A stretch of DNA of 63,455 nucleotides, filler included, from Dirinaria sp. TL-2023a (lineage: Eukaryota), in assembly GCA_051941275.1 (NCBI GenBank). It is 17 parts of 17 records of this genome, joined end to end, with 100 filler letters (N's around TTAATTAATTAA, not from the genome) between each part and the next. Parts side by side here need not be neighbours in the genome. Positions count along the whole stretch, not along the records: positions 15,062 to 18,718 come from JAVEBF010001995.1; 16 more parts are not named here. One strand, 5' to 3'. A program made the position numbers and the translations under genes. The notes beneath the pieces are model-generated. The model made no database searches and was not told where the DNA came from. It worked only from the letters and a program-made list of their open reading frames with translations. How positions within the stretch are numbered: the stretch's first letter is position 1; each line of letters starts with the position of its first letter. Shown one piece after another: positions 849-63,026 of this stretch.

Positions 849-1649
849 AGAAGCTGCTGGCGGTTTTGATGAGAGTAGGGTTTTGTGATTAGGATGCATT
901 TTGGAGGGCATGGAAGGCTTGGGACTGATACGTCCAGCGGGTTACAGAATAGGGAGCCCAGAGAGCAATCAGCCTGTTAATCAAGGTGGGAGATTACCTA
1001 GGAGCAATACAAGTCCTAACCTCCAAAAATATAGCAAAGGAAAGCTCAATCTATTGTTTCGAGAATGGGCATTGGACGCAAAAAGTAATTTAACATAAGA
1101 TAGTTCAGAACTGGGTCAAAGGTTGGGGTAGTACCATTGAAAGCATGCCGCAGCATCAGTAGACTACTTCTTCCTGTTTCATTCAGTTAATAATGCTGTG
1201 CGGCCTTTCATCCATAGCCTTACGAAGCAGAGCAAATGTGCGATAATAGATAGTAGTATGAGAGTGTGCTTACGCAGTAAGGTAGTAAGCCAAGTTCGTA
1301 TTGATTTCTATCGGGTATGATTTGATTGATGCATGCAACGCGCGCCCAGCTCGAAACTGTTTCAAATAGAATTCAAGCCATCCAGCACAAAATTTGTTTG
1401 TGCAAAACTCGCTCGACTCGTGAAAACCATGTGTGTGTGCTTTAGAAATACATTTAGCGGCCATTGTTGCGGAAACAAGCTGACTTATGCAGGGCGCAGA
1501 TGAGGTCGTGGGCCCCGAAAGTGTGGGCTGCCTCCATGCGTCTCCAGGATCAAGAACTGAATCAGTGACAGACCGACCCCACGGCCAGATATCTCTGCTC
1601 TCTATGCCCTTCTTTTGGATCCGCCATCGATTGTGCCAATCCTAGGGCT

Positions 1650-3343
1650 TTAAATGTCTACGCTCTTCATCCCATCCAATCCATCGACACCCAAACCTGT
1701 TACCGATGGCTTGGTATGGTTCTCCTTGTTCGCTTCGTCTTGCGACGTAGTAGACTCGACAGGTTTGTGCATACTTTCCGGTCGACTGTCAGGCAACTTC
1801 TCGAAGCGTTCAGAGATTGGGGTTGCAAGCTCGACCAGCTTGCCTTCTGAGTCGTTCGGGAGATCAATAGTACTGTCTTTCCTGCCACCAGTATAGATCG
1901 GCTTCGGAGCGGGAACCTCAGAAACCTGGGCAAGTGGGCTTGGTTTGGCCTTGACACCTCGCGGACTTGAAGACAAAGGGCCCCGGCCCGGCAATCGCTG
2001 TGGAGAGCGTCCCCTCTCCTCGACCGGACTACCGTATGGTGACCCGCGGTTAGAGCCACTGGGATGCTGAGTATTGATGGCGAGACCCGGGCTTTGCTTT
2101 CTCTTCGGCATCCTTCGGCCAAATTTTTGGTCCATCCTCCATCTCAGAATATCGAGATACGCAGGCTCGACTCCAGCAGTTCTGAACTCACGAAGCTTCA
2201 ACTCCTGCGTCTCTTCATCGACAAACACTTTCTCACTAGTCATGTCGTCGGCGACTGTCGCCAAGAATGCAGCCCAAGATCGAGCTATAACATACTTGCA
2301 GTCGTAGTCCCGCCCAAAGATGATGATTTGGCCCCACTTACCCACTGGACCCGGGGCAAGATCTACCGCGATGTTGTTCCCACCCCAGTCACGGGCAAGA
2401 GGAATCCAGCCAGGGTGCGCATAAGCTTTCTGTATGGCCCTGGGCGGTTGTGAGTCCTGTCGATCGAGGAGCTCTTCCCTCCAGAAGGGGTTGGTAGCTG
2501 TCTGTGATGATGTTTGAGATGAGGTTGACGGGGCACCACCAAAAGCTTTAAGCGTCATTTGGCCGTCGCGGCTGGCGGGCTTTGTGAGATATTCTTCATT
2601 CACGACTTTCCAATTCTTCCATTCCTGAACAATCTCCTCGCAGTCCAACAGCATGCACCCAAAGATGATGCCGGTAGGTCTGCCGCCCCTCTCTTGCCCA
2701 TCATGAACCTGCAAAGATTCTCGGACCTCCATTGGTAGACTACAGTCCAATTCGTGCTCCAGCTCATTGACGTCATTTTGCGTACTTCCCTGTGATAGCT
2801 GATCCCACAGCTCTTCGTAGTGATCCTCTGCCCAACGATCGATCCTTTTCCAGGAGTGAGAAACTGGAGGAGGTGGTGGAAGCCCTTCCTGAAAACTTTG
2901 CATCTGGATTTCTCCAGGAGTTGCATTTTCGAGCGGGATTTGCTGTTCGGCAGATTGCTGCCGTTGCATGGCCGACCTCATGCCCGGCGAATAGGGAGAA
3001 CCAGGAGATTGCATAGTGCCGGCACCAGGCGTGCCGGGCCAGCCGGCTGCGCCATTCTGTATCGGAGTGGATGAGCGAGGGCCGTCGGCGAAGGGAGAGC
3101 TCAGGTCGGCCTGCGAGTCCATTGCGCTGGTTGCGACGGATGTGAGAGGGGCATGGCGGCTTTGGTTGAGCGGCATGTGCGCGCCTGTACGGTAGGGGGA
3201 ATCATGGGATGCGTGACGGTCATTTGAGGTCAAAGTGTGCCAAAAGGAGCGCCAGGTCGCCGCGAGCCTGGAAGTGTGCGCATGTCAGCCCTCAACTCGT
3301 GACTGCAGTAAATAGCTGAGCGGTGTGCTCACCCAGGCGCCAT
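1650..3343 (-). CDS. SMI1: Knr4/Smi1 glucan synthesis regulator, 2 exons (3343-3333, 3267-1650)
   Basis: Splicing gives MAPGLAATWRSFWHTLTSNDRHA. SMI1/KNR4 motifs: SWKRIDRWAEDHYEEL, ESLQVHDGQERGG, AYAHPGWIPLARDWGGNNIAVDLAPGP.GKWGQIIIFGRD. Confidence 0.93.
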
Positions 3344-3671
3344 GGCGGATTCAATTCTCAGCCTTTTGTTGTGTAAACAGGAGGTTCTGGAGTTGGGTGA
3401 ATAGCAGGATTGGCAGGTGGATGAGAAGAAGTAATGTATTGATTAGGTACTAGTAATGGAGGTGGTCGAAAATAGAAGGTAGCCCAGGTTTTACCTTACT
3501 TCCATTATTATTCATTTCACGTTCTAGTGAGATTATTGGGGAGAGTTTAAGGGGAAGCGCGTTCGGGCAAGAGCGTATTATTACTTGCACAAAGCGCAAC
3601 TTAGCGCAATTTCCCAGTCTTGGCATTCAAAAGAAGACCGAAATTTGCACCCAGCCGATGAGCCGAGCCAG

Positions 3672-3771
3672 NNNNNNNNNNNNNNNNNNNNNNNNNNNNN
3701 NNNNNNNNNNNNNNNTTAATTAATTAANNNNNNNNNNNNNNNNNNNNNNNNNNNNNNNNNNNNNNNNNNNN
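3672..3771. other. Artificial contig linker (44 N + TTAATTAATTAA + 44 N); first of 16 identical linkers
   Basis: Identical 100-nt spacers start at 3672, 7441, 11204, 14962, 18719, 22467, 26215, 29960, 33701, 37432, 41161, 44888, 48614, 52337, 56047 and 59757. TTAATTAATTAA gives stops in all six frames. Confidence 0.99.
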
Positions 3772-5376
3772 ATCAAAAATGGTGAATGGTCAAATCCGTT
3801 ATGAACTTAGCGCAAAAGCCCTTTCGAGGTATACGGCGTTATACAATGCGCCTTAGATTTTTTGATCTGGAGTTCTTCTTGCACTTTTTGGCGTTTGGGC
3901 GTTCCGTGAAGGACCAGAAGCTGTACCTAGATTACTTGTACTTGTTTTTCGAAGTGAGTTGAGGCGGATATCGCCCTGTTTAGTTGCTTTGGCTGACTTC
4001 GCTTGATATGTGTGTCTGGAGAAATCTTTCGTTTCATTATCTTGTAGAAGCCACTCAGGTCTCACGGTACGCACAGTGCACAACCACTTGGACGCTCGAT
4101 CATGATCTCCTGTTACGATCGTGCGAGAAGACTGACTTGTGGCGTGTGACGTGGCCATGTAGCGGACCTGGGGATATGGCGCGAGTCAATATTGGAACCT
4201 GACCGATATTGATGACTCGAGTTTAGTTAGGTAGACTTGCCAGGAGGATTGTGGGTTTACACACATGCACATGGTGATGCCCAGACGCTCTGCAGAAGCG
4301 AGCTCCAACAGTCAGAAAACCATTCCTAATTTCATTTGTTGCGTGTATAGGTATTGCAACATCTTGATACCTGAGTCAGGTAAATACTTTTATTGAATTC
4401 CTCTGTAAAATACTTGGGCCAAGCTTGTCAGCCATATAAGGCGGCCTACCAGAGAAGCTACCTAGTAAGAAGCTATATCACTATGCCTTAGGTACCCTTG
4501 GTATAGAAAAGGGAACAACATAATTGATTAAATGCTTGAGTCTGAAGTGTGCCCTCTTTCATTATACGCAGGTGGCAAACCCGAAAGCCGACGTCGGTAA
4601 AGATTCCTCAGCGTTAGCTACTACGGTCCTCGCTGCCACATTGCACTCTTGGGACGCGAGTAATTAGATTGACTCTCAGAGTCATTTTAAGATTTTTTTG
4701 GATTGGCTGAAGGGATTATCGCATAGAACTCGACATCAGAGAAGCTGTGTATTGTAGATATACTTTGTAAGACAACATTTGACTTCGCATTATATTCAAT
4801 GACGGGGGCGGAAATTTCGATGTTTGTCTTACCAGACGTTTACTGGTGTGGGAGAGAATGCTTGTAGAGTCTCCCTTTTAGCAGATCTGGGGTGGAGTGT
4901 GTTGGAAATTTCGCTTATACCTAGCGCCTTGGCATTGTTATGTGTGTTTAAGGGGCGCCAAATCCTCCTGGCAAGTCTATCTTCAGTGTCATCAAGAATG
5001 TCCATTTCCAACATTTTGTGGAGTTGACGACTTGTGGATTATGAGTCCGAGTAACTCCTAGTCTAATAATGTTGAAAAAAGCTGACTTTGGAAAGGGACG
5101 CTTGAGGAATGTGGCTCCGTTGCAGTGAGTAATAAGGATGGACGCAGATGGACATAGGCGTCTCATCCTCGCTTTCGCATATTTTTGGCCAAGCGTGGAT
5201 TATCCGCACGCATTCGTCAAGTGAACAAGCGCCAGCTTTTCAAGCGATCGGTAAGATGGATGTTGGAACGTAAGCGCACGATTCATTTTAGAGTCCCACA
5301 TAGTTTTGCTTATCAGATCTCCTCTCCTTGCTGCGCAAAATCTTTATCAATCTAGATCGGTGAAAGAAAGAAAAAC

Positions 5377-14961: not shown

Positions 14962-15061
14962 NNNNNNNNNNNNNNNNNNNNNNNNNNNNNNNNNNNNNNN
15001 NNNNNTTAATTAATTAANNNNNNNNNNNNNNNNNNNNNNNNNNNNNNNNNNNNNNNNNNNN

Positions 15062-15439
15062 GTGTGGGACGTGCAGACGGGTCAATGTCAGCACACTCTA
15101 GAAGGTCATTCAGTCATGATCAGCAGAGTAGTGTTCTCGTCTGACGAGTCACGAGTGACATCGAACTTCGATGACAACACGGTGCGAGTGTGAGACGTGC
15201 AGACGAATCAATGTCAGCACACTCTGAAAGATCATTTAGACAGAATCAGCAGGGTAGTGTTCTCGTCTGACGGGTCACGAGTGGCATCGGGCTTCGATGA
15301 CAAGACGGTGCGAGTGTGGGACGTGCAGACGGGTCAATGTCAGCACACTCTGAAAGGTCATTTAGACAGGATCAGCAGGGTAGTGTTCTCGCCTGACGGG
15401 TCACGAGTGGCATCGGGCTCCGATGACAGGACGGTACGA
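15062..15439 (+). repeat. Three 126-bp tandem WD40-coding repeats
   Basis: Units start at 15062, 15188 and 15314, with a partial fourth at 15440. Confidence 0.95.
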
Positions 15440-15784
15440 GTGTGGGATGTTATCAGCTCGAAAGAATTATCATGTTTCGACACTGACACACCTCATCCGA
15501 CTATCGCATTCAGCGATGACAGCTCAAAGATTCTAGTAAACAGAGAGTTGTTAACTATATCAACACAGACGTCACTATCCAGCGCTACAGCGAGATTATC
15601 TGGGTCTTCTTCAAATTTGCCTGCTAGCAGACCTGGATTCAGGGATGAGTGGGTCACTTCGTCTTCTCAAAGGATCTTGTGGCTTCCTCCCGAACTCCGA
15701 CCCGGAGTCTGGGCAAGCAACAGCGACACGATTGTCGTAGGTAGTTCTACTGGTCGAGTCACTTTTGTGCGTCACATCATATGA
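15062..15784 (+). pseudogene. C-terminal WD40 array of a HET-E/NWD-type NLR, with an in-frame stop
   Basis: Near-identical WD40 units (VWDVQTGQCQHTLxGH..VVFSPDGSRVASGSDDxTVR) and the typical NWD tail (ILWLPPELRP..IVVGSSTGRV). TGG>TGA at 15191-15193. Confidence 0.85.
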
Positions 15785-18194
15785 CGCTGCGTCATGCTTC
15801 TCGTTCTTATAAACATCCTCTGCCACCTCTAGAGCGTGGACGCGAATATTTGTCTACGACAGAACTCTGGCCCTTTCTGTAATGCTGATTACTTTCCTGA
15901 ATATTTAACTTAGTATCTTCGTCTTTTTTTGAACATGCCGTGTCTACGTCGACAGTGTGACCCTGCTATTCTTGAATTCGAAACAGTCTTTATGAGATCT
16001 TATGACCTCTTTTCGCCAGGGAATCGAACAGTAATATGATAAAAGGGATCGAGAAGGTAGCTTCAATATCACTAGGGCGCGAGAAAATACAATCGTTCTG
16101 ATAGAGAGCATATCGATTTTCGCACACGCGCAATGTGAAAGTTTGAGACTGTCATTCAACCGCATTGTCTCTCTTTGAAAATTTGTCATGAAGTTCGCAC
16201 CGCCAGCCAGCAGATCTTTAAAGGTCTTCTCGCTATTAGTGGATTAATACGTATTTGGACGATCGTAGCCGACAGATCCCAAACGAAATTATAGCTACCA
16301 ATTGTTGGAGTAGTTGACGACTGGATTCCTGAGTATTATGAAGGTGTGGTCAGCTGCAATACGTACGAGTCTTCGCATGGGGCTGAGAGTGTTGTTTCGC
16401 TGATATCAGCAATCTTTCACCGTTCTAATTACGCCTATTATTGTACTTTACAACCCATCGCTCCGGCTGCTATGAATGAGTCGCTAAATTTGCTAGCATT
16501 AGGTGAGCGACTTTGCATTATCCCTATCCTAAGCTCTGATCGGTTTACAAATGTTGGGGATATCCGAGACGTGCCCACACTTTTTACACTGGATGAAATC
16601 ATGAGACCGGTGGAAAACGATTAGGGTCTCACAAGCTTACGCTGACCGTGCGAGTACTTTAAGTTGATCGGTGGGTCAAGCACAGACAGATATATTGCAT
16701 CTTTATTTATGGGGGGCATGACTTACTATTGATCAACTATAGTCTTGTTGCCTCAACGCCGGGAGAGATAGCGACGAAATGTGCTTTACCAACGCTCAAC
16801 AAGCTTGCAAGTTCGGTCTTTGCGAGGCTAATCGAAACTTCTCTTTCGAGGATGAAGCCTTCAAGGCAGCAACATTCGAGACGGAGGTCTAGAACTCGAT
16901 GACCGCGAATGAGCTAGAAGAGTCGATGTTATCTCGCAGTGACGTTCTACCTTATCGTCTACCTGAACGCGGTAGTGCTCATCGACTGAATTCTAACACT
17001 GTAGCTTCTTATCCCTGTGCCAAAATAGCGCGACCCCGGCGCATCGTTGGAGGATAGCATGGACGAAGCAGCCTGGTTCCGCTCGACAAGGACGAACCCA
17101 AATCGTAACCCACTGATTTTCCTGATGAGCGGAGATAAGCTTGTCGGATCAAGAGAGGGTAGCCTCTCAAAAAGTAGATTGGCTCCGAGCAATGAGGACA
17201 TATTATGAGTTATAATCTAGCATGGAGGTGCTTTGGCAACACTATAGATGCTACTACAGAGATATATTCTTGAGATTAAGATGCTCCATCACTCCAGTAT
17301 AATGACTACCGGTTGTACGAACGAGATCGATGGGTTCTGCAGTGACGTGTAGATGCATCAGCAGCTTCTTGTTGTCTCAGCAGCATAGGATGATGAGTGT
17401 ATACAGCATCGCCAGCGTTAACCCAGTGATCAGATGTTATGGATAGAATTAGAGTGATACTCTACCTACACTGTATTATAGCTACGCTTCATAATCTAGC
17501 TGGCCCGACCAATCAACAACCCAATCGGTCTTTGATCGAATCCGCTCAGCTCCGCCTCAGCTCCTCGCTCGAGCTTATACACTACCGGTCAATGACTAGA
17601 CGGTTGGCATCCTGGTGCCCGCCCTACACTCCTTTACCCTTCTACTCCGCCTCCTTCTCTGCCTCCTTCTCTGCCTGACGAGACGCTGCTCGGCGAGCCT
17701 GTCGACTTGATTCAGCCAATGACGTAGCTTTCGCTTAGTCGATATAGTTAGGCGAGCGGGAGAAGACCACAAGCACGGCCGCAATCTCGTGATTATACTG
17801 ATGGCCTTGATCCGCAAAATGCTGCTTGCTCAGAGTAACGTAATCACGGATGAACCACTGAATCTGGTCGCTGGTGAAAGGCCCAATCAAAGTCAGCGGT
17901 CGACGATGCGCGATCCAGTCTTGCGCTTGAGCCCGCTTGCCAATGATATTGCTTGCTGGACGTTGTGCTAGCATGTCGCTCTCGATCTGCAGACCGCTAG
18001 CTTGGGCCAAGGTGCGAGTTATACTCGCGGCATTTCTCCCAAACGTCGTCGTCGAACAACCGACAGTAGACCTTCTTTGCCGGTCAAGCATCCATAACTT
18101 GGCCATTTGGTCTTCCGACCCATTCACACGCAACATGCCGTCGTGATGGCGATATACCTATCACAAGGCGGCAGCCCTCGAATCCCAACGCCAT

Positions 18195-18698
18195 TCAATT
18201 TCGTAATGTGTTAATAATTTGGTCTTGGCGCATGTTGAGAATCACTTGCTGTGCGGTGATCAGGTTGGGCAAGGCTCGATTCTCGAAAGTTGCCTTGATG
18301 GCCTCAAACTCCATGTACGAGCGGACCGAGGTGAGCGCCTGGTGGCTTTCGAAGAGCAGAGTGATAGCGCCTGTGTTGGCCATCTCATGTTGAATCTTGC
18401 GAGTTGCCTAATACAGCATGTCAAGGATCAGGTCGAGGAGCGCCATATTATAATCGCTGCGTCGAACGGTCACCCACATACTCTTAACTTCGTGTTCCTC
18501 GGGCGGTGCCGTTGCACGGTCCCTCTCCAGGAGTGATTGAAGTTCCCTTCAGCTGTTGAGCTCTTTGTCATTTGCCCCCATGACACCACTTTTTTCTAGT
18601 ATGTCTTCGAATTCATTATCATAAGCTGTGACAGACTTGTAGTTCGAGGAGAGAAGGCTTGCGTTCGCTTTTCGCTTGCGGTCGGAATAATCCGACAT
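18195..18698 (-). pseudogene. Decayed ORF with multiple in-frame stops
   Basis: From ATG 18698: MSDYSDRKRKANASLLSSNYKSVTAYDNEFEDILEKSGV..NS*RELQSLLERDR. The same frame continues through stops at 18549, 18408 and 18195. The AYDxxFExxL..W.EL..L...R pattern resembles a repetitive fungal hypothetical family. Confidence 0.45.
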
Positions 18699-18818
18699 TG
18701 ACAGTGCTCCATATTGACNNNNNNNNNNNNNNNNNNNNNNNNNNNNNNNNNNNNNNNNNNNNTTAATTAATTAANNNNNNNNNNNNNNNNNNNNNNNNNN
18801 NNNNNNNNNNNNNNNNNN

Positions 18819-22982: not shown

Positions 22983-24140
22983 CGGCTGCTGATGCCTTCC
23001 TTGCCAGCCAGGAAGCTATGTCGATTCTAAATGTGCCGGTGTCGTAGGGTTGACAGGCAACACGGACGGAATGAGAGCGTTTCTCGGCCAAAACGGCCAT
23101 CTTCACTTCATGATGCTCATAGGAGAACTGTCAAAGCAGTGACACGGATGAAAGTACTCCGTGGTCGAAATATGGTTGGTCGCGTCTGATTTGAGGACTT
23201 TATTGGGCGGTGATGGACGTAAGGAGGTTCGAAGATGATCCGCGTTGTTGGAGATGGTATAGTAATTTTGTAGTGTAGAGGAATATTTCTTGCCTAGCGC
23301 GGGACGCTGGATGTTCTCGAGAGGAAGGACTATCATTCACATATAGGAATCCGGTGTAGAGCGGAGTGACTAGAAATCCTTAAAATGATCAAGCTATTTA
23401 AAATGGATCCCACTGCCGCAACACCACCCTACGCTACTGGCACATCACTGTTCCCCACGAATTACTACTTATTCTGGGGTGATAATGCATCCGATCTCTT
23501 TCATGCTTCGAGCTTAAGATCTATCGATCTCTCTTGCTCTGACAGAGTACGAGTTTCAAGCAACGACGATTTCACGAGATGACGATGAACTGATTTTACC
23601 ACGAACGTGCCATCGTCAAATAGGCAAATCGTTAAAGCAGGTTGAAGATGTAAAAAAAATACTTGAGAGAGGCATTGATAGATGGAAAACAATAGGTAAG
23701 GAGGGCCGCGTGGACAGCAAAAGTGGAGGCAGTGTGTCAGCAAAGAACCTCAGGGTGGTGTTGTGGCAGTGTAATTGAGAAATCTTCAAGAGCCACTATA
23801 GGACTCAAAAATTCCACCATTCCAAGTGCAAAGCAAAAAGTCTGATTGATTTGCCGATCAACTGACACATTATTTCCTGGAATCCATGCAAATAAAGAGC
23901 CAATAGCGTGCTTGGTGAGAAGATCAATAAGAATGGGTTCGTGGCCTGCTCTACATAGTATTTTCGCTTGTGTGCGCTAAGACACGCTAGTGTCATTAGG
24001 GCTTGTGCCAAGTCACGTGGTTCGCACCCACAGAGGACTGCGTCTTCTTCTACTTCCTCTTTCTTTTCTCTTCTCTCTTCAGTACTCCGATTCGTTCAGA
24101 TATAACCACGGTTAGACCTTAAGAATTGTTCGACCTATCA

Positions 24141-24270
24141 CAGAGACCTTGATCACGGTCAAGTCTCGTCTTTATATTCTATAACAGAGATCTCGATCAC
24201 GATCAAGGCTCGCCTTTATATACTTCTATAGAGAGATCTTGGCCATCGTCAAGACCCGCTTTCGCATTCA
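24141..24270. repeat. Three imperfect ~45-bp tandem repeats, each with a hairpin core
   Basis: cagagaccttgatcacggtcaagtctcgtcttt (24141), cagagatctcgatcacgatcaaggctcgccttt (24185) and gagagatcttggccatcgtcaagacccgcttt (24231). Confidence 0.75.
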
Positions 24271-24362
24271 CTTGTAAACTCGTACATCGCTCTTTCCCCT
24301 TTTACTCTTTTCACTTCACTCTTCCCTCGCTCTTAGTCCTGTCATCTATTTTTGTCGATAGA

Positions 24363-25100
24363 ATGGCATCATCCAATCCTGCTCCTGCATTGTCTGCCTC
24401 TGGTGCGAAGAGAAGTGGCAACGCTACTGCTTCAAGACCCAAGAAGTATAAGATTATCAAATGCTTATTTGAGTTCACTCTGAAAGAAAGCGAGCAAAAC
24501 ATTAATCTCGTCTCGTCGAATGTCTGATCAACTCTCGAAATAGTCGACAAATATGACTAGGATGCAAATGTTGACTCGATCGTCTTCGAAAACACTGTCA
24601 CAATCACTCAAAAGAGAAGAGGCTGCAAATGCGTTCCGATTTTGTCTTCACATCAGTACACGGCCTTGGCTGTAGAGAAAGACTCGAGTCATACAAACTC
24701 AATCTGAGCTCAACTCAGATCTGACGACGAACGATCAATCAGTCTCAAAAATGACGAGACTGTCGCACGAGAGTTCTTTTTGATCAAACACAGCGGAAGC
24801 TGCAATCACATAAGACTCAGCATCTCAGGGGCACACATGAATCGATCCGACGAATCTATGTCTCACACTTAACAAGGCATACGGGATCACTTAAGAGTTA
24901 GTGCACGCCCCTGACTTCGCATTCACCACTTGTGGATATGCATTTTCGAACGCTCTAACGCAAGCAAAATTTCTCACTTGACAGTTTCTTCTCGGCAAAC
25001 AAAAGATCTTCAAAAGGGTTGATCAAGGTTCAGCCATCGTCTCGTCTGCTGCCGCGACTCAACCCCCTCACGCATCATCATCAGCAGAAGTAGAAACGAA
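24363..25100 (+). pseudogene. Hypermutated ORF remnant with a probable intron (~24897-24964)
   Basis: MASSNPAPALSASGAKRSGNATASRPKKYKIIKC.. continues in one frame through TGA 24525, TAG 24558, TGA 24705 and TAA 24870. The region is poor in CC/GG. Confidence 0.55.
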
Positions 25101-25882
25101 GAGGAAACGTGAGGAAGTAGTCGTGGACGAAGACAATGATTCGACTTTTCTCGAGACACAGATTCAATCTCTTCGACAGCGGGTGGATGACTTAGAAGAG
25201 GCTTGGATTCAGAAAAAGAAGGAAGAGGCTGATGCGCCCATCCAGCTTTCCTAAGGGCAAGACGAGAATTGGAGCATTTGATTGGTAAAAAGCCCCGTCG
25301 CAATGAATAGCAGATTTTGTTTACTGTTTCTGCTGTATCTCCTACATTTCCCCCTTTTAAAAACACCGAATAGACCTGCTCCCCATTTCCCAAAATCAAA
25401 ACACACGGCGTCGTTGTCGTGTATTGAGGTCCTTAAGCTGTGTATATCATGATTCAAATTCTTACCGGCTCCCACTGCCACTTCACCCCACTTCTTACTA
25501 GGTTTAATGAGATAGGATTGTTGGCTCGGAATCAAAATCTCTGAAAATTTTTTGACCTTTTTAACATTGAACGACTTGCTGATTTGACGATGGCGCTGTT
25601 ATGGTGATTCGGCCCATCGTCACTTCTTCATACCGTCTTTGCTTCAAGCTCGTACCCTGTCAGAGCAGAGAAAGGGATGCACTATCCTGTGGAATTGATA
25701 TAGTGAGAGGGTTGGCGCGCCAGTAGAATATGGTGGTGTGGTGCTATTTATATCATTTACATAAGTAGACTAGATTCATCAAGATTCAAGATCGACCATC
25801 ACAAGACAATAGGAAAAGCAACGAGGTTGCGGACGATACCCAAGAAGCGGTATTGCCCAACGGACTCCAAACCTTCCCCAGT

Positions 25883-38222: not shown

Positions 38223-41160
38223 TTAAGGAGTGTTCAACAGGGTACCAATGATTATGGTTCGTTCCAGGACTGTCTTTATTTCCTGGTGTTCTAATTTCTT
38301 CTGCAACTTCTTTACCTGCTTCTGCAAAAGGCTGACAAAGTCCTTCAATTGTTTCTTGTGCAGACCTGTGTCTTGAAATTGTCGATATCGGAGTTGGTAC
38401 GAGCTGTCCGGGAGTTGGGGGAAGAAAGCTTGTTTCAGACTGAGGGGAAGATCTTCTATTGAAGCAAGATCCATTGCTTCGTACGTACTGTCGTCAAACA
38501 TCGTTATCTGACACATCTCCTGATTCCAATGCTTCAAGTTTTCATTTATAATATCATGTATTTGAAGATGGCCAGCAATAACCCGCCATTCTGAACGATT
38601 TTCATTAGGGCCTTTCGATTGAAATTTTGATATGTGCTTGGTATTCTGTGTCCTACATTCTTGTAAAGTCCGTTTATAATCAGGATCCCACAAACTGGTA
38701 TTGCGGCAATTGGTCTCGAGTTTCTTCCCTTGAATCATTCTCGATTTTCCTCAGCATGATGTTCAAAGCTTCTAAACGTTGTCCTCGCTTTATCGAGCTT
38801 GGATATCGTGACCAAGATATTTGGATAGCAGCGGCTTCAGACATCTCTTCCAAGTCTTCTCACCACTTCCTCGGATTTTCTAGTTGCCAGATGAGATTAC
38901 TTGAATATGTGGAAGTAGTCTATGGGTGCGCACTGAGACTTGAGATGAGTTTTTCTTTATCTGCCTGACATTCATCCTGTCTTGGTCGATTCATCGACAT
39001 ATCGTCCAGTGTAACGATGTCTACGTTACCCAGCAGCATGTTTGCCTCAGGCTGCTGACCAGAATCTGCTCACGCGATCGTAATAATCAGAGCGTTGCTG
39101 ATAGAGGAAAACAACATCAACTATGCCGCTGAAGAGAACGGATTACGAAGATAGAGATAGTGGATGAAGATCTCAGAGCATTTCTGATTGACGAATCCTC
39201 TTCCATCATCTCTCATTTCGAAGTTTTATGGTGGTATCTTCCTTCTAGGTTCTTTTGCCAGTCTTGACTGTTCATATATGCGGACTTTCTCAGACCTTGT
39301 TCGTCTTAAAGAGCTCCATGTCCGCAAAGAATTGAGACGAGTGCCTTGTACTTAATTTTGTCCACTGCTATCCATATCTTATCAAGCGAGTAAATTTCCG
39401 CTTGAGCTGCATCTTGAGGATCGTCTGATTGCTCCTCAACAATCTTTCTCCTCAACTCCTCATCTTGTTCCTGATGATGCTGACATCTTTCCACGGTTCG
39501 GCTTCATGTGTGGTTTTGATATGAGAGATATGGTTTTATCACCTAAGATGGATCAGTGGGACATATATGATAAGTGGAAAGATGGATGATCCTACTATCC
39601 AGCTTGGACCAACTACCGGTAGTCCGTTCAGGGCTAGCTCAACTAGCCATCTACCTAGGCAAACATTCTGGACCAAACACTAACATCTGGCGACAACAAC
39701 ATATTTTGATGCTCTGGTCTATGTGTCCTTTGAGCGTTTGAGCTAGATGTAGTTTGAAAGAAAAGAAATTAGCTGACCTGCTTGAGGTGATCTTATCCGC
39801 CTCCTTTGTAACAAGAAATTTCAACGGTGTTGCTGACCTGTGTCCTTTGTGGTCTGTCCAGGTGATCTTATCTGCCTGAATGTCATTCATTTGGTCTCGC
39901 GCTTGCTGTATTCTGCGTCGGAATGTTTATCACAGTCTGAACCACTATGTTTTTCGTATCGTATCTCTCCAGCTCTGCTGTTCAGTTGTTTTGCAGTGTC
40001 AGGCGATTAAAGAGTTCCTTGAATCATTCTTTAAAGAGCTCCTTGGCCGTCTTGATATACCATTTCTCATATCCGTCGAGAGTATCTTGATGAATATTTG
40101 AACTTTCTCATGACTCGGTGATATATCATATGCTCATACTCTCTCTGTGTATTTGTCGGAAAAATGATGATGGAAATTTTGTAATAAGCGCGAGAACACT
40201 TCCATATATGTTCCCTCTGATCCATTTTAGGTGCAATCATATTTCTCGTATCAGGTTCTTAGAATATGTAGTGCTACATTGGAGTCCAGACACTGTAGAT
40301 GGAGCTCTTGTAGTTTTCGGGAGTAAGTTTGCTATTAAAAGATTCGTTACGTGCTTTTAACGATCTCTCTTGATCTTGATGGTAGGAAAAATAATATGAC
40401 AACAAACGTTAATTAACGCACGAATCCTGGATCTGAGCGTGACATCGTTCACGTAAATCGAAACCATCATCTCTGTTTGTTCAAGCAAGGCAGCAACTTT
40501 TCTCTCAAAACGCAGCGGCATTTGCTAGCATTTTTCATACGCATCAGCGCATCGAGGATATCGTCTAGTTTTTCTTTTTCCCACACTAATATCGTTAGTC
40601 AAATTCCATTCAAGTATCAGAAATATATCACGATACTCGAGATTGTTGCTCAGCTGTCAAAATCAGCGCAATTTCTCGAAGATGCTTATTAAGACAAAAT
40701 TTTTATTCGACTGATTGAGATCGAACAGAGAAGGATTGAATTTTTCTGTTATCACTCAGCTTCGTGAGTTTCATTAAAATAGTGTCAAATTAACATTTCT
40801 TGATAAACTCTTTTGTTAAAAGTTCGTGAGTCTTGAATTCGTCGCACAGCATCAATGGAAACGCGTTAAGATAATATTGTTTTAACGAATTTATCTCTGT
40901 ACTTCTTTTGAATATCGATATCAGTCGTCTCTGATTTGTCTCTGCATGGGCTTTAAGTCTCTTCAACTTCTTTTTCTAAGCTGTCAATTTTTCTTTGATA
41001 TCTTCTGATTCTCTTTCGATATAATTATCATCTCTGTCAAATTGCGTGATATTTTCTTCGTCATGGAAATAAAAAATCTTAAAATGCACGAAACGATCAT
41101 AACTTTTCTTGTCGAAATTGACGAGATAGCTCTCGTCGTCGTTTGACGAAATCTGACACT
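38223..41160. other. AT-rich decayed repeat/ORF remnants, increasingly CC/GG-depleted toward the contig end
   Basis: Only fragmentary Lys/Gln/Glu-rich minus-strand ORFs (e.g. 38738-38223). By hand count, 40621-41160 has 0 CC and 5 GG. Confidence 0.6.
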
Positions 41161-54043: not shown

Positions 54044-56046
54044 TGGAGACGCGCTCAGAGCTTCGAATACTACAGTACAATGTTCAAAAGTCGAGAAGCA
54101 AGGTAATGATAGCTCTACTACAGGAAGATAAAATCAAGGAATATGATATATTGGTGATCCAGGAGCCATGGCGCCACTGCGAGGGAGCGAAGACATATAA
54201 CCCGTGAAACTCCGGCTTCACGCTGGAGGACAACGGAGGAAGGACATGCTTTTACGTCAATAAGCGAATCGACAGCAACAGCTGGCACACGAAGTGGCAC
54301 TCCAAAGACGTGGGTACGATTACCTTACATCTACGTCCTGACGGGGAGAGAAGCGAGAGCGAGGTACTTCAAATTCATGGAATATACAATCCGCCCCCGA
54401 TCAGCCACAACGAGATAAATAACAAAGGAAGCCTACCGGAAGTAAAAGCAGCAATGAGCATGCACGGAGAAAGCATAGCAGTGGGAGACTTCAATCTACA
54501 TCACCCATCATGGGCCGGTCCATCCTATCCTAGACAACATCTCTTGGCGGACGACCTGCTAAATATCATGCAAGATGCCAGGGCCTCGTTGGCACTTCCC
54601 AAAGGCACCATAACGCGGGACTATCAAGGGGCTCAAACCACTATAGACTTGAGCTTCGTCACAGACGGTATTGCCAACAGGCTAATATATTGCGGAATAG
54701 ACGAGGAAGTGGAGAATGCATCTGATCATTTACCAATACGAACAGTACTTGATCTTCGAACACAAGAAGAACCCCCACGTCATCCTCGACGCAACTGGAA
54801 GAAAATGGATGTGGAAAAATTCGACAATGTATTGAGAAATCATCTACCAGAACCACTATCGGAAGCGTCGACGGGTCGTCAACGTATTGATGAGTACACC
54901 ATGGAAATACTAAATGCTCTGGATAAGGCAACAGAAGAGTCCACGCCGTGGGCCAAACCACACGATATAGCCAAAGCAGCATGGACAGATGAGTGCACTC
55001 AAGTGGTGAAAGAGACTAGACGCCTACGTCGTGGATGTCGCACTCCGGCAGATTGGGCAGCATACGTAAAGGCTTGCGATCGCAAGGGAAAGATATTGAG
55101 AAAACACAAACGAAACGAATTCCGCACAGCTATGCAGACCTCGGAAACGACTAGCAAGAAACTCTTCGATAATGCCAAATGGGCTCGAAACGCGGTAGCA
55201 GGCACATTGACTCAGGCGACTATCCCACCGCTAAGTCGAGGGGGAGAAATTGCCGTCACAGCGGCTGAAAAGGCAGAAGTTATGTTTCAAACACACTTTC
55301 CACCCCCGCCGACAGTAGCAATCGACGATATCGAAGGATTTATCTATCCGACACCCATAGAGGAAGGCGGCTCGATCACAGAACGAGAAGTGACGAGAGC
55401 AATATATAAGGCGGCACCGGACAAAGCTCCAGGAATCAACGGAGTTACGAACAGAGCGCTAAGACAACTGGTACGCGTTGCACCAACACAAGTGAAATCA
55501 CTATTTGAGAGGTGTATTCAAGAGGGAATTCAACCGGCGCACTTCAAGAGGGCTGCCACCATAGTGCTACGAAAGCCAGGCAAGGAAGACTATACGGATC
55601 CGTCAGCATATAGACCTATAGCTCTTCTAGACACTTTGGGCAAAGCGTTGGAGTCTATAATCTCGGAACGTCTACGCTACGCAGTCGAGAAGTGTGGCAT
55701 GTTACCGGACACGCAAATGGGTGCCAGAAAACAGCGATCGGTGGATACGGCTCTACAGCTCATAACCGAGAAAGTACACACGATATGGAGCGGAAACAAG
55801 AAGCGAGTAGCATCATTGTTGAGTCTGGACGTCTCCGGAGCGTTCGATAATGTATCACATGCCAGATTGTTACACAACATGCGTAAAAGAAAAGTACCGA
55901 CACGTTTGCTAGCATGGGTGGAAGACTTTTTAAAGGAACGTCGAACTACACTAACGATTGGCGGCTACACGCAAGTGGAGCGCGACGTAACAGTCGGTAT
56001 ACCTCAGGGATCGCCGCTCTCACCGGTACTCTATCTATTCTATAAC
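54043..56046 (+). pseudogene. LINE ORF2 (endonuclease + reverse transcriptase) with one premature stop, 3'-partial
   Basis: LRILQYNVQKS, DILVIQEPW, GDFNLHHPSW, SDHLPI, KAPGING, YRPIALLDTLGKALE, LDVSGAFDNV and GIPQGSPLSPVLY. In-frame TGA at 54205-54207. Confidence 0.93.
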
Positions 56047-56353
56047 NNNNNNNNNNNNNNNNNNNNNNNNNNNNNNNNNNNNNNNNNNNNTTAATTAATT
56101 AANNNNNNNNNNNNNNNNNNNNNNNNNNNNNNNNNNNNNNNNNNNNGAAAAAGGGAGAGAGTGAAACGAGTGAAACGAGTGTTAGCGGCACCATCGCCTA
56201 CTCGAATAAGTTTCTATATTTCGGTTCTCTATATTTGCATATCCATAATCCCCGCCCTCTTCCCCCCACCGGGCAAAAGCTACTTTACCACGCTCGCCCA
56301 AAAAAACAACTCCAGCTTGGTTGGTTGGTGTTGGTGTAGGCAATGTTGCAACC

Positions 56354-59637: not shown

Positions 59638-59856
59638 TGCAGACTACTCCGAGCCTGCTACCATTGGTAGAATTGGCTAGGAAAGCGAGAATAGCCAGCC
59701 CAATACCATTACACGCAGCCAAGAAATGAAATCGAAACCAATACACCTTACTGCATNNNNNNNNNNNNNNNNNNNNNNNNNNNNNNNNNNNNNNNNNNNN
59801 TTAATTAATTAANNNNNNNNNNNNNNNNNNNNNNNNNNNNNNNNNNNNNNNNNNNN

Positions 59857-62800
59857 TCTCGCAGTTGGTCATCCCTGATACCGGCGGCTTCCGCAACTAC
59901 TCCCAAGTGGCATCCGGTTCCTTTACGCTGACTGCCGGTGACCACATCATTCGTCTCGCTGCCGTAGACAGCAGCACAACCGCCACACCGGCGAGCATCT
60001 ACTACTTAGGCGACATGGACTGGCTCAAACTCGCCTCCACAGGGCCGGGCGGCAACCCATTGTCACAGGTCAAGCTCTACAACACGGGTGTCAACGACGA
60101 CGGCTCACTCGTGGTCGCCGACCCGAACGCCTCGGGCGGTACGCCCGACCCGCACTACACGCCTGCTTACGTCATCAATCCCGGTGACGGCGGCGTACCG
60201 GGCGGTTACTGGACGCCGAACACCAGCACTTCTCAGTGGGTCGGCTCACGTAGCGATCAGCCGTTTGGAACGGCGATCGCCGGCGACTTCGATTACACAA
60301 CGAACTTCGACCTTGCGTCGATCGATCCCTCAACCGTTCACATCGACGGGCGCTGGGCGACGGACAACAACGGCGAGGACATCGTCGTGAACGGGCACAG
60401 CTTGGGCGTAACAACTCCCTATCAGGAGTTCCAGTGGCACCGCTTCACGATCCCGTCTGACGATTTGCAACCAGGCCACAACACGATCGAGTTCAAGCTC
60501 CACAGCGGCAGCCCGTCGGACAATGGAGGCTGGGAAGGGCTGCAGACACAGATGGTACTGGCCTACAACGGGACGTTTGGCGGTACGTGGCCTGAGACGA
60601 ACGATCCTCCGACGCTCACCACGCCGAATGCCACTCCGAACCCTGTCACTACGACGAGCACCAGCTTGAGTGAGATTGGTTCCGATGACGGTGGCGAGGG
60701 AAATTTAAAATACACTTGGTCTGTCGATCCTAGCTCTCCCAGCGGCGTGACTTTCAGCAGCCACGATTCGAATGCTGCTAAGACTGTCACGGCGACTTTT
60801 ACACGGCCGGGCACCTACAAAATGTATGTCACAGCGACAGACCTCGACGGCGCGTCGACCACGTCGCAACCGGTCGAAGTCGACGTTGTCTCGACGGTTC
60901 AGCCGTTCTCAATCAGTCCGGCTGAAGTGAGCGTGCCTTTGAGCGGTCAAGGCAACATAGAGTCGCAACAGTTCACCGCGTCCGCTTTTGATCAGTTTGG
61001 GACTCGGGAGCCGATCACGTGGTCGCTCAACGGTGACGGAAGCATCGATCAGAACGGGATATACCAGGCTCCGATGAGTGGCAGCGACGCTACGATTGAT
61101 GCCGTAGCGGGCTCAGTAGATGCAGCACCAGCACATGTGACGCTAACTGGAGGGGGCACAGCTACGCCAACACCGTCGATGGGAATCACCGTTGACACCA
61201 ACCAGTTGCCCGAACAAAGCACGTCGCGCGCCGTGTTCACAATCACTCGCACCGGTGGCGATGACTCGCAGCCTATCTCGGCGTTGCTCAACTTCGGAGG
61301 AACTGCAACGCCTCCATCTGCTACTACTTCCGATGCCGACTACCACATCTACCAGGGCGCAGATAGCACGACGCCGCTGGATGGTTCGACCGTGGTAATT
61401 CCGGCTCACAGCAACCAGGTCCAATTCTCAATCGTCCCGATCGAGGATACGATTCAAGAAGGTGATGAAGACGTCGATGCCTCGATTGCATCCAGCCCGA
61501 ATTACAGCGTCGGACAAAATAATCATGCGGACGTGGTGATCGATGATTCGGGTGGTTCAGGTGACCCAACCTCTACAATGACCGCTTCAGCGATCTCGAG
61601 CAACTGGGTACACCTCGATTGGGTCGACCCCGCCAATGTCGGTACCTATGCGTTATTCCGAGACACCAAGGCCGACTTCACGCCGAGCTTGAACAATCTG
61701 GTCAAGGAGACGAATTCAACGACTTACGACGATGACAGAATCCATTCTGGCTCCTCGTACTACTACAAAGTATTTTCAGTCGGCAACAATGGCGACACTG
61801 TCTACCTAGGGAATGCGACTGTCTCTACTTCGTCCCAGCCGAATGCGTCAGAAGCGAGCTCACAAAATCCCAACGACCTGCCCGGGCCGGTGCCGCCGGA
61901 ATCACCGACCAATGTTCAAGTGTTAGGAATAAACGACCTTGAGATTTTCGTAAGCTGGACGCCCCGGCAGAAAGCTTATTTGAGCGGCTATGACATCCAA
62001 GTGTCGACCGACAACCAAAACTGGTTTGACGCTGGTACCACGTCGCCCTTGTCTACCAACTTCATTGTTAGAAGATGCGGCCCAGCTGGAACCCCGAACA
62101 CTTTTTTGCGTCCGAACACAAATTATTACGTGCGTGTAAGGGCGAAGGTTGATATCGATGAACAATTCTCCTCTAGGCAAAGCGATTGGGCTGAGGCGCC
62201 TGGAGCTGAACAGGTCCGAGAGCCAGATTTGTCGATCGATCAGGGCAAAGACGTGCTTGTTGTAATCGCAGGTAACAATCAGCCTATCGAAGATGTGCTT
62301 AAAGGCATCACCATCGGTGTAAACGGATCCACCGGTCAGAGGGAGCTTCAGGGCATGCAATATTCTGATAGTGTTGGCTACATCTGGGCGAAAGATGTAA
62401 ACGAAGGCTATAATGCATTTTTCTCTGTCGATCCAGCAGACGGAGGTTGCCCAGACGGCTATGGCGGGCTGCCCGACAACAGTCCCTGGATGACCGATGC
62501 GGACAAACTCAACGACGTAATCAATAATGACGGTTCCGGCCTTCTTTATGACGAGATTTTAGAAGAATTTAGGCGGGGGTCGACCGACGTAGGATTGATT
62601 GGATACAGTCATGGCGGCGGGATGATATATAACATTTCTGACAGGCTAGCTAACGATTCGAGCATCCCTCCATTCGCGGGCGTAGTGTTCTCTGGTACGA
62701 TCGACGCTGTCAATTATGGCACTGGGATCGATGATCTCATGTTCAACGATGGTTGGTATCAACGCGACCCACTGCAGTCCAACCCGATGGATCTGTGGAG

Positions 62801-63026
62801 CGGCGGTGCTTCGATCAATTACTTCGAAGAAACAGGTTATTTGTTAGGTGGCCACTTCGGTACTAACGGAGTGCTTGGGGCGTACGTGCATGGCGCGGCG
62901 TTGAACAACGCGGAAAATCACGACTTCGGCTATTCTCTTGATCATAGCGGGATAGCGACCAACTCTGCTGTTCTCGATGGAGTGAGAACCGCGACTGACG
63001 ACTTATTCGGGTCGTTAACATATTAG
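59857..63026 (+). CDS. Bacterial large extracellular protein (CBM-like, jelly-roll, PKD/Ig-like, Calx-beta-like, 2x FN3) with a C-terminal alpha/beta-hydrolase domain; 5'-partial
   Basis: More than 1050 intronless codons. TGGFRNY..TLTAGDHIIRL; GRWATDN; DDGGEGNLKYTWS..TATFTRPGTY; FTITRTGG..PIEDTIQEGDE; LRPNTNYYVRVRA; LIGYSHGGG (62601-62621)..TIDAV..DHSGI. Confidence 0.85.

Follow-up and report, generated by a model that had tools for sequence, protein, structure and literature searches.

RIP-Like C-to-T Hypermutation with an Apparent CpC Preference in the WD40 Array of a Predicted Fungal NACHT-WD40 Receptor Gene

Introduction

Repeat-associated C-to-T hypermutation is found in several groups of fungi, and its dinucleotide preference varies by fungal lineage; the RIP-like process is directed to CpG in Aspergillus and Penicillium and to TpCpG in some basidiomycetes. 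We know of no fungal RIP-like system that prefers CpC. The closest described process is the RID- and DIM-2-dependent RIP of Neurospora crassa and other Pezizomycotina, which generates C:G>T:A changes only, densely, locally, and in a strand-coordinated manner within one tract. It strikes duplicated DNA, reads its context from the 3′ neighbour of the cytosine, and leaves behind stop codons and AT-richer islands. The changes described here resemble those of RIP in these traits of the mutations, the duplicated DNA being a tandem WD40 array.

Literature on the sequence context of RIP is centred on CpA. The RIP rate in Neurospora depends on the 3′ neighbour, an effect which the accessible part of one preprint ascribes to base flipping by methyltransferases (bioRxiv 10.1101/344036). 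CpC>TpC is one of the four formal mutation classes of the RIPCAL software, the available text of which reports CpA dominance (PMC2621366), and in the corresponding portion of a study on rDNA, CpA is mutated more often than CpC, CpG, and CpT (PMC5555474). While CpC would rank among the less-mutated classes according to these portions of the two RIP papers (PMC2621366, PMC5555474), it is the preferred class at the present locus. For lichen fungi, the available excerpts describe RIP as reported from CpA-based indices or GC content alone (PMC3897900, PMC12542154, 10.1101/2025.11.25.690456 on Xanthoria, PMC13535494), and CpA indices are also named in the accessible part of an Ascomycota-wide survey (PMC7882544). 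RID and DIM-2 homologues are reported, in the part available of the paper concerned, for one lichen fungus, which is other than the present one (PMC12542154). Our literature search, in which most matches were covered by title-level information, returned no report of a CpC-dominant RIP.

With regard to the affected gene, the closest counterparts are NWDp1 and NWDp2 of Podospora anserina. According to the excerpt available, these are members of the NACHT-WD40 non-self-recognition type with near-identical 42-residue repeats, which became pseudogenes via C>T hypermutation (PMC1805685); the present locus is like them in all three points. In the Podospora genes, following the same excerpt, CpA is the target and the NACHT part and the flanks are struck, with the WD repeats looking unmutated, whereas CpC is the target here and it is the WD repeats that carry the mark (PMC1805685).

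Window and Comparison Material

The window, i.e., the whole stretch of DNA analysed (positions 1-63455; 63,455 nucleotides), consists of 17 unplaced contigs of 3599-3671 bp each, which are arranged in falling order of length and joined by 16 linkers. Genes flanking a linker are, therefore, not neighbours in the genome. The locus is located on contig 5 (15062-18718, 3.66 kb, unplaced), the first bases of which belong to the WD40 units; the coordinates of all features are compiled in Table 1.

A BMS1 fragment on another contig finds its best named matches, at 65-68% identity, in Letharia, Imshaugia, Lepraria, Stereocaulon, and Lasallia, with a further match at 83%. From these matches and from the lichen-metagenome label of the related public run described below, the fungus is predicted to be an ascomycete near the lichen-forming Lecanoromycetes. 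A retroelement of the LINE type is found on contig 15 (52478-56094). It has two long open frames, of which the second (54208-56094) comprises the domains Exo_endo_phos_2 (endonuclease) and RVT_1 (reverse transcriptase) and reaches the contig end. Since this element is apparently intact, mutation does not affect every repeat of the genome. On contig 17, an unbroken frame of 1,073 amino acids with fn3 and PKD domains is found (59805-63026); with a GC content of 0.55 and a relative CpG abundance of 1.24, this contig may represent bacterial DNA of the lichen community and not fungal DNA. The 655-amino acid frame on contig 8 (27772-29739), which contains IMS and IMS_C domains, encodes a Y-family translesion DNA polymerase and is an ordinary gene.

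The sole public run that was found to share words with contig 5, here termed X1, is labelled as a lichen metagenome. It contains 0.05 of the sampled words and is, therefore, not the source sample. Over the whole of contig 5, 52 contigs of X1 were placed at a likeness of at least 80%, with 2-4 contigs per place. Two of them are at least 99% alike, 12 fall between 95 and 99%, 18 between 90 and 95%, and 20 below 90%. They may represent different strains or alleles and need not be copies from a single genome.

Receptor Gene and WD40 Array

At 15062-15447, the program TRF detected a repeat with a period of 126 bp, 3.1 copies, and 90% matches. With the reading frame starting at 15062, the units were delimited as unit 1 (15063-15188), unit 2 (15189-15314), and unit 3 (15315-15440). 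They are near-identical, 42 residues long, arranged in tandem, and C-terminally located, as is characteristic of the NWD/HNWD type. As a candidate duplicated target, the array is tandem, at least 378 bp long, and cut by the contig end.

The unique tail following the array shows 43-51% identity to the C-termini of long NACHT-WD40 proteins, in which the NACHT domain is PF05729, and 81% identity to the metagenome loci L001 and L002, which were retrieved by a protein scan and are one and the same sequence. In L002, the longer locus of the two, a NACHT region is located directly upstream of the equivalent tail. Contig 5 itself does not include a NACHT part, since its very first base already belongs to the array. 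The tail matches, together with the order of NACHT region and tail in L002, indicate that the start of contig 5 would belong to a fungal gene for a NACHT-WD40 NOD-like receptor, of which it would form the 3′ end, with the array presumably cut by the assembler. As the array starts at the very first base, beside a linker, the order of the units could be an assembly mosaic.

L002 contains, at 1642-4080, an N-terminal region and the NACHT region followed by the tail, and is devoid of a WD array, so that no second array is available for testing. Its frame breaks just past the P-loop (frames 2176-2472 and 2370-3752); L002 would be either a decayed gene or one whose array collapsed in short-read assembly. 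In a comparison aimed at losses of Gly and Pro, the conserved motifs of its NACHT part look intact, the homologues being just 34-39% identical. A second copy of the WD unit was not found in the window by self-comparison, repeats being almost absent from it, and the search of JGI metagenome contigs for the exact WD pattern gave 0 matches.

Table 1: Positions of the features in the window.
Feature	Position	Strand	Basis
Artificial linker N44-TTAATTAATTAA-N44 between contigs 4 and 5	14962..15061	.	
Three 126-bp WD40 units, 3′ remnant of a longer array	about 15062-15440	+	TRF; Pfam WD40, E 9e-24
Hypermutated tract, 118 bp, across the unit 1/unit 2 junction, 10 G>A at GpG	15127..15244	+	
Premature stop TGA in unit 2 in place of TGG of units 1 and 3 (Trp of the WD motif)	15191..15193	+	
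Unique C-terminal tail, 114 residues, stop TGA at 15782-15784	15440..15784	+	
Orphan sequence without homology to the L002 locus, 2-4 X1 contigs per place	16251..18718	.	
CpC/GpG-depleted, TpC/GpA-enriched island inside contig 7 (the second of two)	24367..25166	.	
Island terminating contig 11 on its 3′ side, depleted in CpC/GpG and enriched in TpC/GpA, GC 0.32-0.40	40332..41160	.	

Changes in the WD40 Units

Among the three units, 20 of the 126 columns are variable. With unit 3 as reference (column 122 set to the majority G), private G>A changes are found in unit 2 at columns 5, 18, 19, 43, and 56, and in unit 1 at columns 65, 85, 96, 102, and 103. All 10 of them are preceded by G, i.e., they are of the kind GpG>GpA. 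Since 15 of the 45 G residues are in the GpG context, the probability of obtaining five out of five twice by chance is 6.0e-6. Of the 28 C in the unit, just two, at columns 78 (gCc) and 106 (tCc), stand in the CpC context. At both, units 1 and 2 have T; unit 3 has C and keeps the conserved Pro and Ser. Being common to units 1 and 2, these two C>T changes are not independent of each other in the two units.

The remaining differences are of a different kind. Unit 2 deviates from unit 3 by two extra transitions, namely at column 115 (ApG) and at column 122, where unit 3 itself has undergone TpG>TpA. Unit 1 shows five extra transitions (columns 38, 39, 49, 115, and 122) and three transversions (columns 52, 55, and 116), mostly in the variable codons after the GH dipeptide. 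The initial annotation had described seven transitions in each of units 1 and 2, all of them CC->TC or GG->GA. Seven changes per unit do belong to the CpC/GpG class and all of the quoted examples are present; given the extra differences of the units, the word "all" had to be dropped. The accompanying claim that CpA, TpG, and CpG are almost untouched agrees with the counts, according to which the 12 CpA, 10 TpG, and 9 CpG sites per unit have undergone at most three changes in total, with none of the 10 private changes at TpG. When the units are written in the purine/pyrimidine alphabet, their identity amounts to 98.9 and 97.8%, compared with 90.1 and 87.6% in four letters.

At the codon level, the changes comprise one Trp to stop, two Gly to Asn, one Gly to Asp (in the GH dipeptide), one Gly to Glu, one Ala to Thr, and two synonymous AGG>AGA exchanges. 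They are degenerative, not adaptive. Because Gly and Trp codons are destroyed and a stop is created, this copy is a pseudogene. The stop is formed here via TGG>TGA, unlike the TAG of RIP. Selection on the variable codons was considered as a cause and ruled out, since conserved residues are destroyed, a stop is made, and two of the changes are synonymous.

The changes are confined in space as well as in context. Ten of the 15 GpG sites within the tract are changed, versus 0 of the 30 in the remainder of the three units (Fisher 9e-7). The 10 private changes all fall on a single strand, as is the case in RIP, where one strand is affected per event. The tract looks like the product of one event on one strand; alternatively, it would be a unit-length piece of a mutated paralogue that recombination or the assembler put in this position. 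On the plus strand, each of the 10 mutated G is preceded by G, and just 5 of them are followed by one. Expressed for the mutated cytosine, the 3′ neighbour is C at 12 of 12 sites of the units. The base 3′ of the cytosine determines the choice of target, and the base on its 5′ side is free.

Related Copies and Orthologue Control

The comparison of the window with the X1 contigs yielded 182 C>T, 181 G>A, 53 T>C, and 59 A>G changes in the direction from window to X1, and between 7 and 19 changes for each of the eight kinds of transversions. In total, 363 C>T-type changes are accompanied by 112 reverse transitions and 92 transversions, which corresponds to the excess of C:G>T:A that is characteristic of RIP. 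Sequence contexts were read at the best-supported 40 of these 567 places, which are not a random sample. Twenty-one of the best 40 are of the C>T type, and 15 of these 21 are at CpC. Measured against the CpC background of 0.192 of C in 15980-18718, the binomial probability of 15 out of 21 among these best 40 of 567 places is 2.9e-7. The 3′ neighbour at the 21 places (best 40 of 567) is C 15 times, T three times, G twice, and A once, and the 5′ neighbour is G 10 times, T five times, and A and C three times each. In the reverse direction, where the window has T and X1 has C, TpC accounts for 3 of 14 places within the best 40 of 567, which is no excess; it follows that, outside the WD units, little of the mark is present in the window's own copy.

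Within the orphan sequence at 16251-18718, 13 of the 18 C>T-type places that are among the best 40 of 567 are at CpC. No Pfam family was assigned to this sequence, and its longest frame gave one match to a nameless 79-amino acid protein. At 15988-16207, X1 is identical to L002 at seven of the eight listed places, from which it is concluded that X1 contains an L002-like organism. With X1 being L002-like, the strong C>T excess must stem from the WD part and from 16251-18718.

Two observations concern the array itself. One X1 contig joins position 15229 back to 15108, a step of 122 bases with three other letters in between, which indicates a different arrangement or number of units in the related organism. 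At 15128, an X1 contig has a loose end, where the GGT is read as GAT in another unit.

L002 served as the orthologue control. It aligns to 15449-16250 at 83.6% identity, the differences being 68 transitions and 42 transversions without a preferred direction. Of the C/T sites, 8 of 31 and 11 of 37 involve CpC, which means that the divergence shows no CpC bias. The preference is thus distinct from the overall mutation spectrum of the lineage, and a general mutation bias was ruled out on this ground. No bias was found for the short repeats (<150 bp) of contigs 6 and 7, where CpC is concerned in 2/4, 0/4, 2/9, and 4/16 cases; these repeats may be too short to be targets. The two contigs share short, MITE-like inverted repeats of 40-140 bp. 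On contig 7, a 44-bp tandem repeat with 2.7 copies (24135-24253) is situated at the edge of the CpC-depleted island.

Composition and RIP Indices

By the canonical RIP indices, every one of the 17 contigs is negative, with TpA/ApT ranging from 0.56 to 0.81 and (CpA+TpG)/(ApC+GpT) from 1.01 to 1.41. Unlike RIP, the process at this locus shows no preference for CpA; CpA and TpA are untouched, and the standard indices consequently stay negative. The CpC-based index of RIPCAL responds where the CpA-based ones do not.

Two islands of about 0.8 kb stand out by their composition. At 40332-41131 on contig 11, CC+GG was observed 16 times versus 49.2 expected and TC+GA 134 times versus 90.6, with values of 39 versus 24.2 for CG and 93 versus 89.4 for CA+TG; the shuffle z-scores of this island are -5.4 for CC+GG and +6.6 for TC+GA. 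At 40532-41160, only three CC and six GG are left, which means that both are depleted. In the island on contig 7 (24367-25166), CC+GG was observed 40 times versus 81.0 expected and TC+GA 151 times versus 97.0, and the z-scores for 24067-25266 are -5.4 and +8.7, respectively. As both CC and GG are depleted in the islands, both strands are mutated over long stretches. CpA, TpA, and CpG are untouched in either of them. This is the trace expected of repeated CpC>TpC mutation on both strands and the opposite of classical RIP relics.

The relative abundances of CC/GG and TC/GA were compared as a ratio in 600-bp windows (n = 186), for which the median is 0.74 and the 5th percentile 0.53. The lowest values are those of 40532-41131 (0.19), 24367-24966 (0.32), and the WD units (0.35). 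The NACHT coding region of L002, which is largely intact, has a low ratio too (0.44-0.51), so that in coding DNA composition carries little weight by itself. A window search in the purine/pyrimidine alphabet retrieved no hidden relatives of the two islands, and Pfam analysis of the 39 longer of the 107 open frames of at least 45 amino acids on contigs 5, 7, and 11 gave just three sub-threshold matches.

Proposed Mechanism and Alternatives

The preferred reading is a locally targeted, RIP-like C-to-T process, with its specificity in the 3′ neighbour as in enzymes of the DNA methyltransferase type; we rate its probability at roughly 0.5. According to this proposal, local C-to-T hypermutation of the RIP kind would have acted on the present ascomycete and on a close relative. 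The process would favour the 5′ cytosine of CpC (CpC>TpC, appearing as GpG>GpA on the other strand) in place of the classical CpA. It would have struck the tandem WD40 array of the NACHT-WD40 gene, hitting 10 of 15 sites on one strand over about 120 bp. Duplication would be the trigger and a cytosine methyltransferase-like protein of the RID/DIM-2 type the putative enzyme.

Two additional lines of evidence and one control speak for the CpC preference itself. Of what the initial annotation had proposed from the units, the bias towards CpC is upheld by the GpG context of all 10 private G>A changes, by 15 of the 21 C>T-type places among the best 40 of 567 in X1, by the two islands, by the negative RIP indices, and by the unbiased divergence of L002. 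The numbers are small, i.e., 12 sites in the units and 21 C>T-type places in X1 (best 40 of 567).

The strand coordination of the changes would also be compatible with a cytidine deaminase. AID/APOBEC enzymes read the base 5′ of their target (TC, CC with 3′ C, or WRC), and the clusters that they leave are strand-coordinated C>T changes as well. A single-strand-specific deaminase, or some other enzyme with single-stranded DNA as its substrate, might have struck a recombination or repair intermediate of an unstable array, giving a cluster of the kataegis type without any premeiotic sensing of repeats. That the 10 private changes are all on one strand within a single 118-bp tract would fit such an origin, as would the frequent recombination that is described for WD arrays of such genes in the available part of the Podospora study (PMC1805685). 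It is opposed by the neighbour bases: unlike in AID/APOBEC clusters, the 3′ base decides here and the 5′ base is free, with C following the target in 12 of 12 cases in the units and in 15 of 21 in X1 (best 40 of 567), and with 5′ neighbours that are mixed in X1 (G 10, T 5, A 3, C 3; best 40 of 567). The islands, where both CC and GG are depleted and hence both strands were affected over 0.8 kb, are likewise difficult to reconcile with it. A deaminase is, therefore, regarded as unlikely. As a 3′-neighbour rule is shared by RIP and DNA methyltransferases, an enzyme of the RID/DIM-2 type would be favoured over one of the AID/APOBEC type.

The same 3′-neighbour specificity, together with the local nature of the islands, would suit a methyltransferase that does not mutate actively. 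In that case, heterochromatic or repeated DNA would be methylated with a preference for CpC, and slow deamination of 5-methylcytosine would do the rest. Ten of 15 sites changed on one strand within 118 bp, next to untouched units of the same array, have the look of an event and not of a slow process, which makes methylation-linked decay rather improbable.

Some doubt arises from the position of the array at base 1 of a 3.66-kb unplaced contig and from the length of the tract, which is about that of one unit. The contig end might be a chimeric path through the WD units of paralogues, and the differences normal variation or errors; the X1 contig with the joint back over 122 bases, and thus with a different unit arrangement, could be taken in the same sense. 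A mosaic would not give rise to directional and context-specific changes, and errors would not recur as the same bias in X1. The destruction of conserved residues, the formation of a stop, and the two synonymous exchanges are not explained by selection on variable codons, and the loose X1 end at 15128, with GGT read as GAT in another unit, also argues against an artefact. This explanation is considered quite improbable.

O6-alkylguanine favours G after a purine, and UV damage at CC dipyrimidines should favour TpC without a following C, too. A damage signature of either kind, as a general bias of an exposed lichen fungus, would account for the GpG>GpA context and for three pairs of adjacent changes (columns 18-19, columns 102-103, and X1 18577-18578 among the best 40 of 567 places), and is nevertheless the least credible explanation, given that the L002 divergence is unbiased and the mark local, that ApG is not enriched (1/13 in the units and 3/21 in X1, best 40 of 567, against a background of 0.28), and that TpC without a following C occurs at just 2 of the 21 X1 places (best 40 of 567).

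Significance

Returning to the preferred reading of a RIP-like process directed to CpC, such a variant would score "no RIP" on TpA/ApT and (CpA+TpG)/(ApC+GpT), so that the extent of genome defence could be misjudged in whole lineages. A natural enzyme with a switched 3′-neighbour preference would provide a handle on the flank specificity of RID/DIM-2-type enzymes, through comparison or swap of the target-recognition region. In the accessible part of the Podospora work, repeat-directed hypermutation is proposed as a source of diversity for the immune receptors of fungi (PMC1805685); recognition repeats of a NOD-like receptor being struck, as at the present locus, bears on this proposal. It is conceivable, and put forward here tentatively, that a lichen-type ascomycete lineage runs a defence of the RIP class that targets CpC, is invisible to CpA indices, and acts on the arrays of NOD-like receptors, where it would feed both variation and decay.
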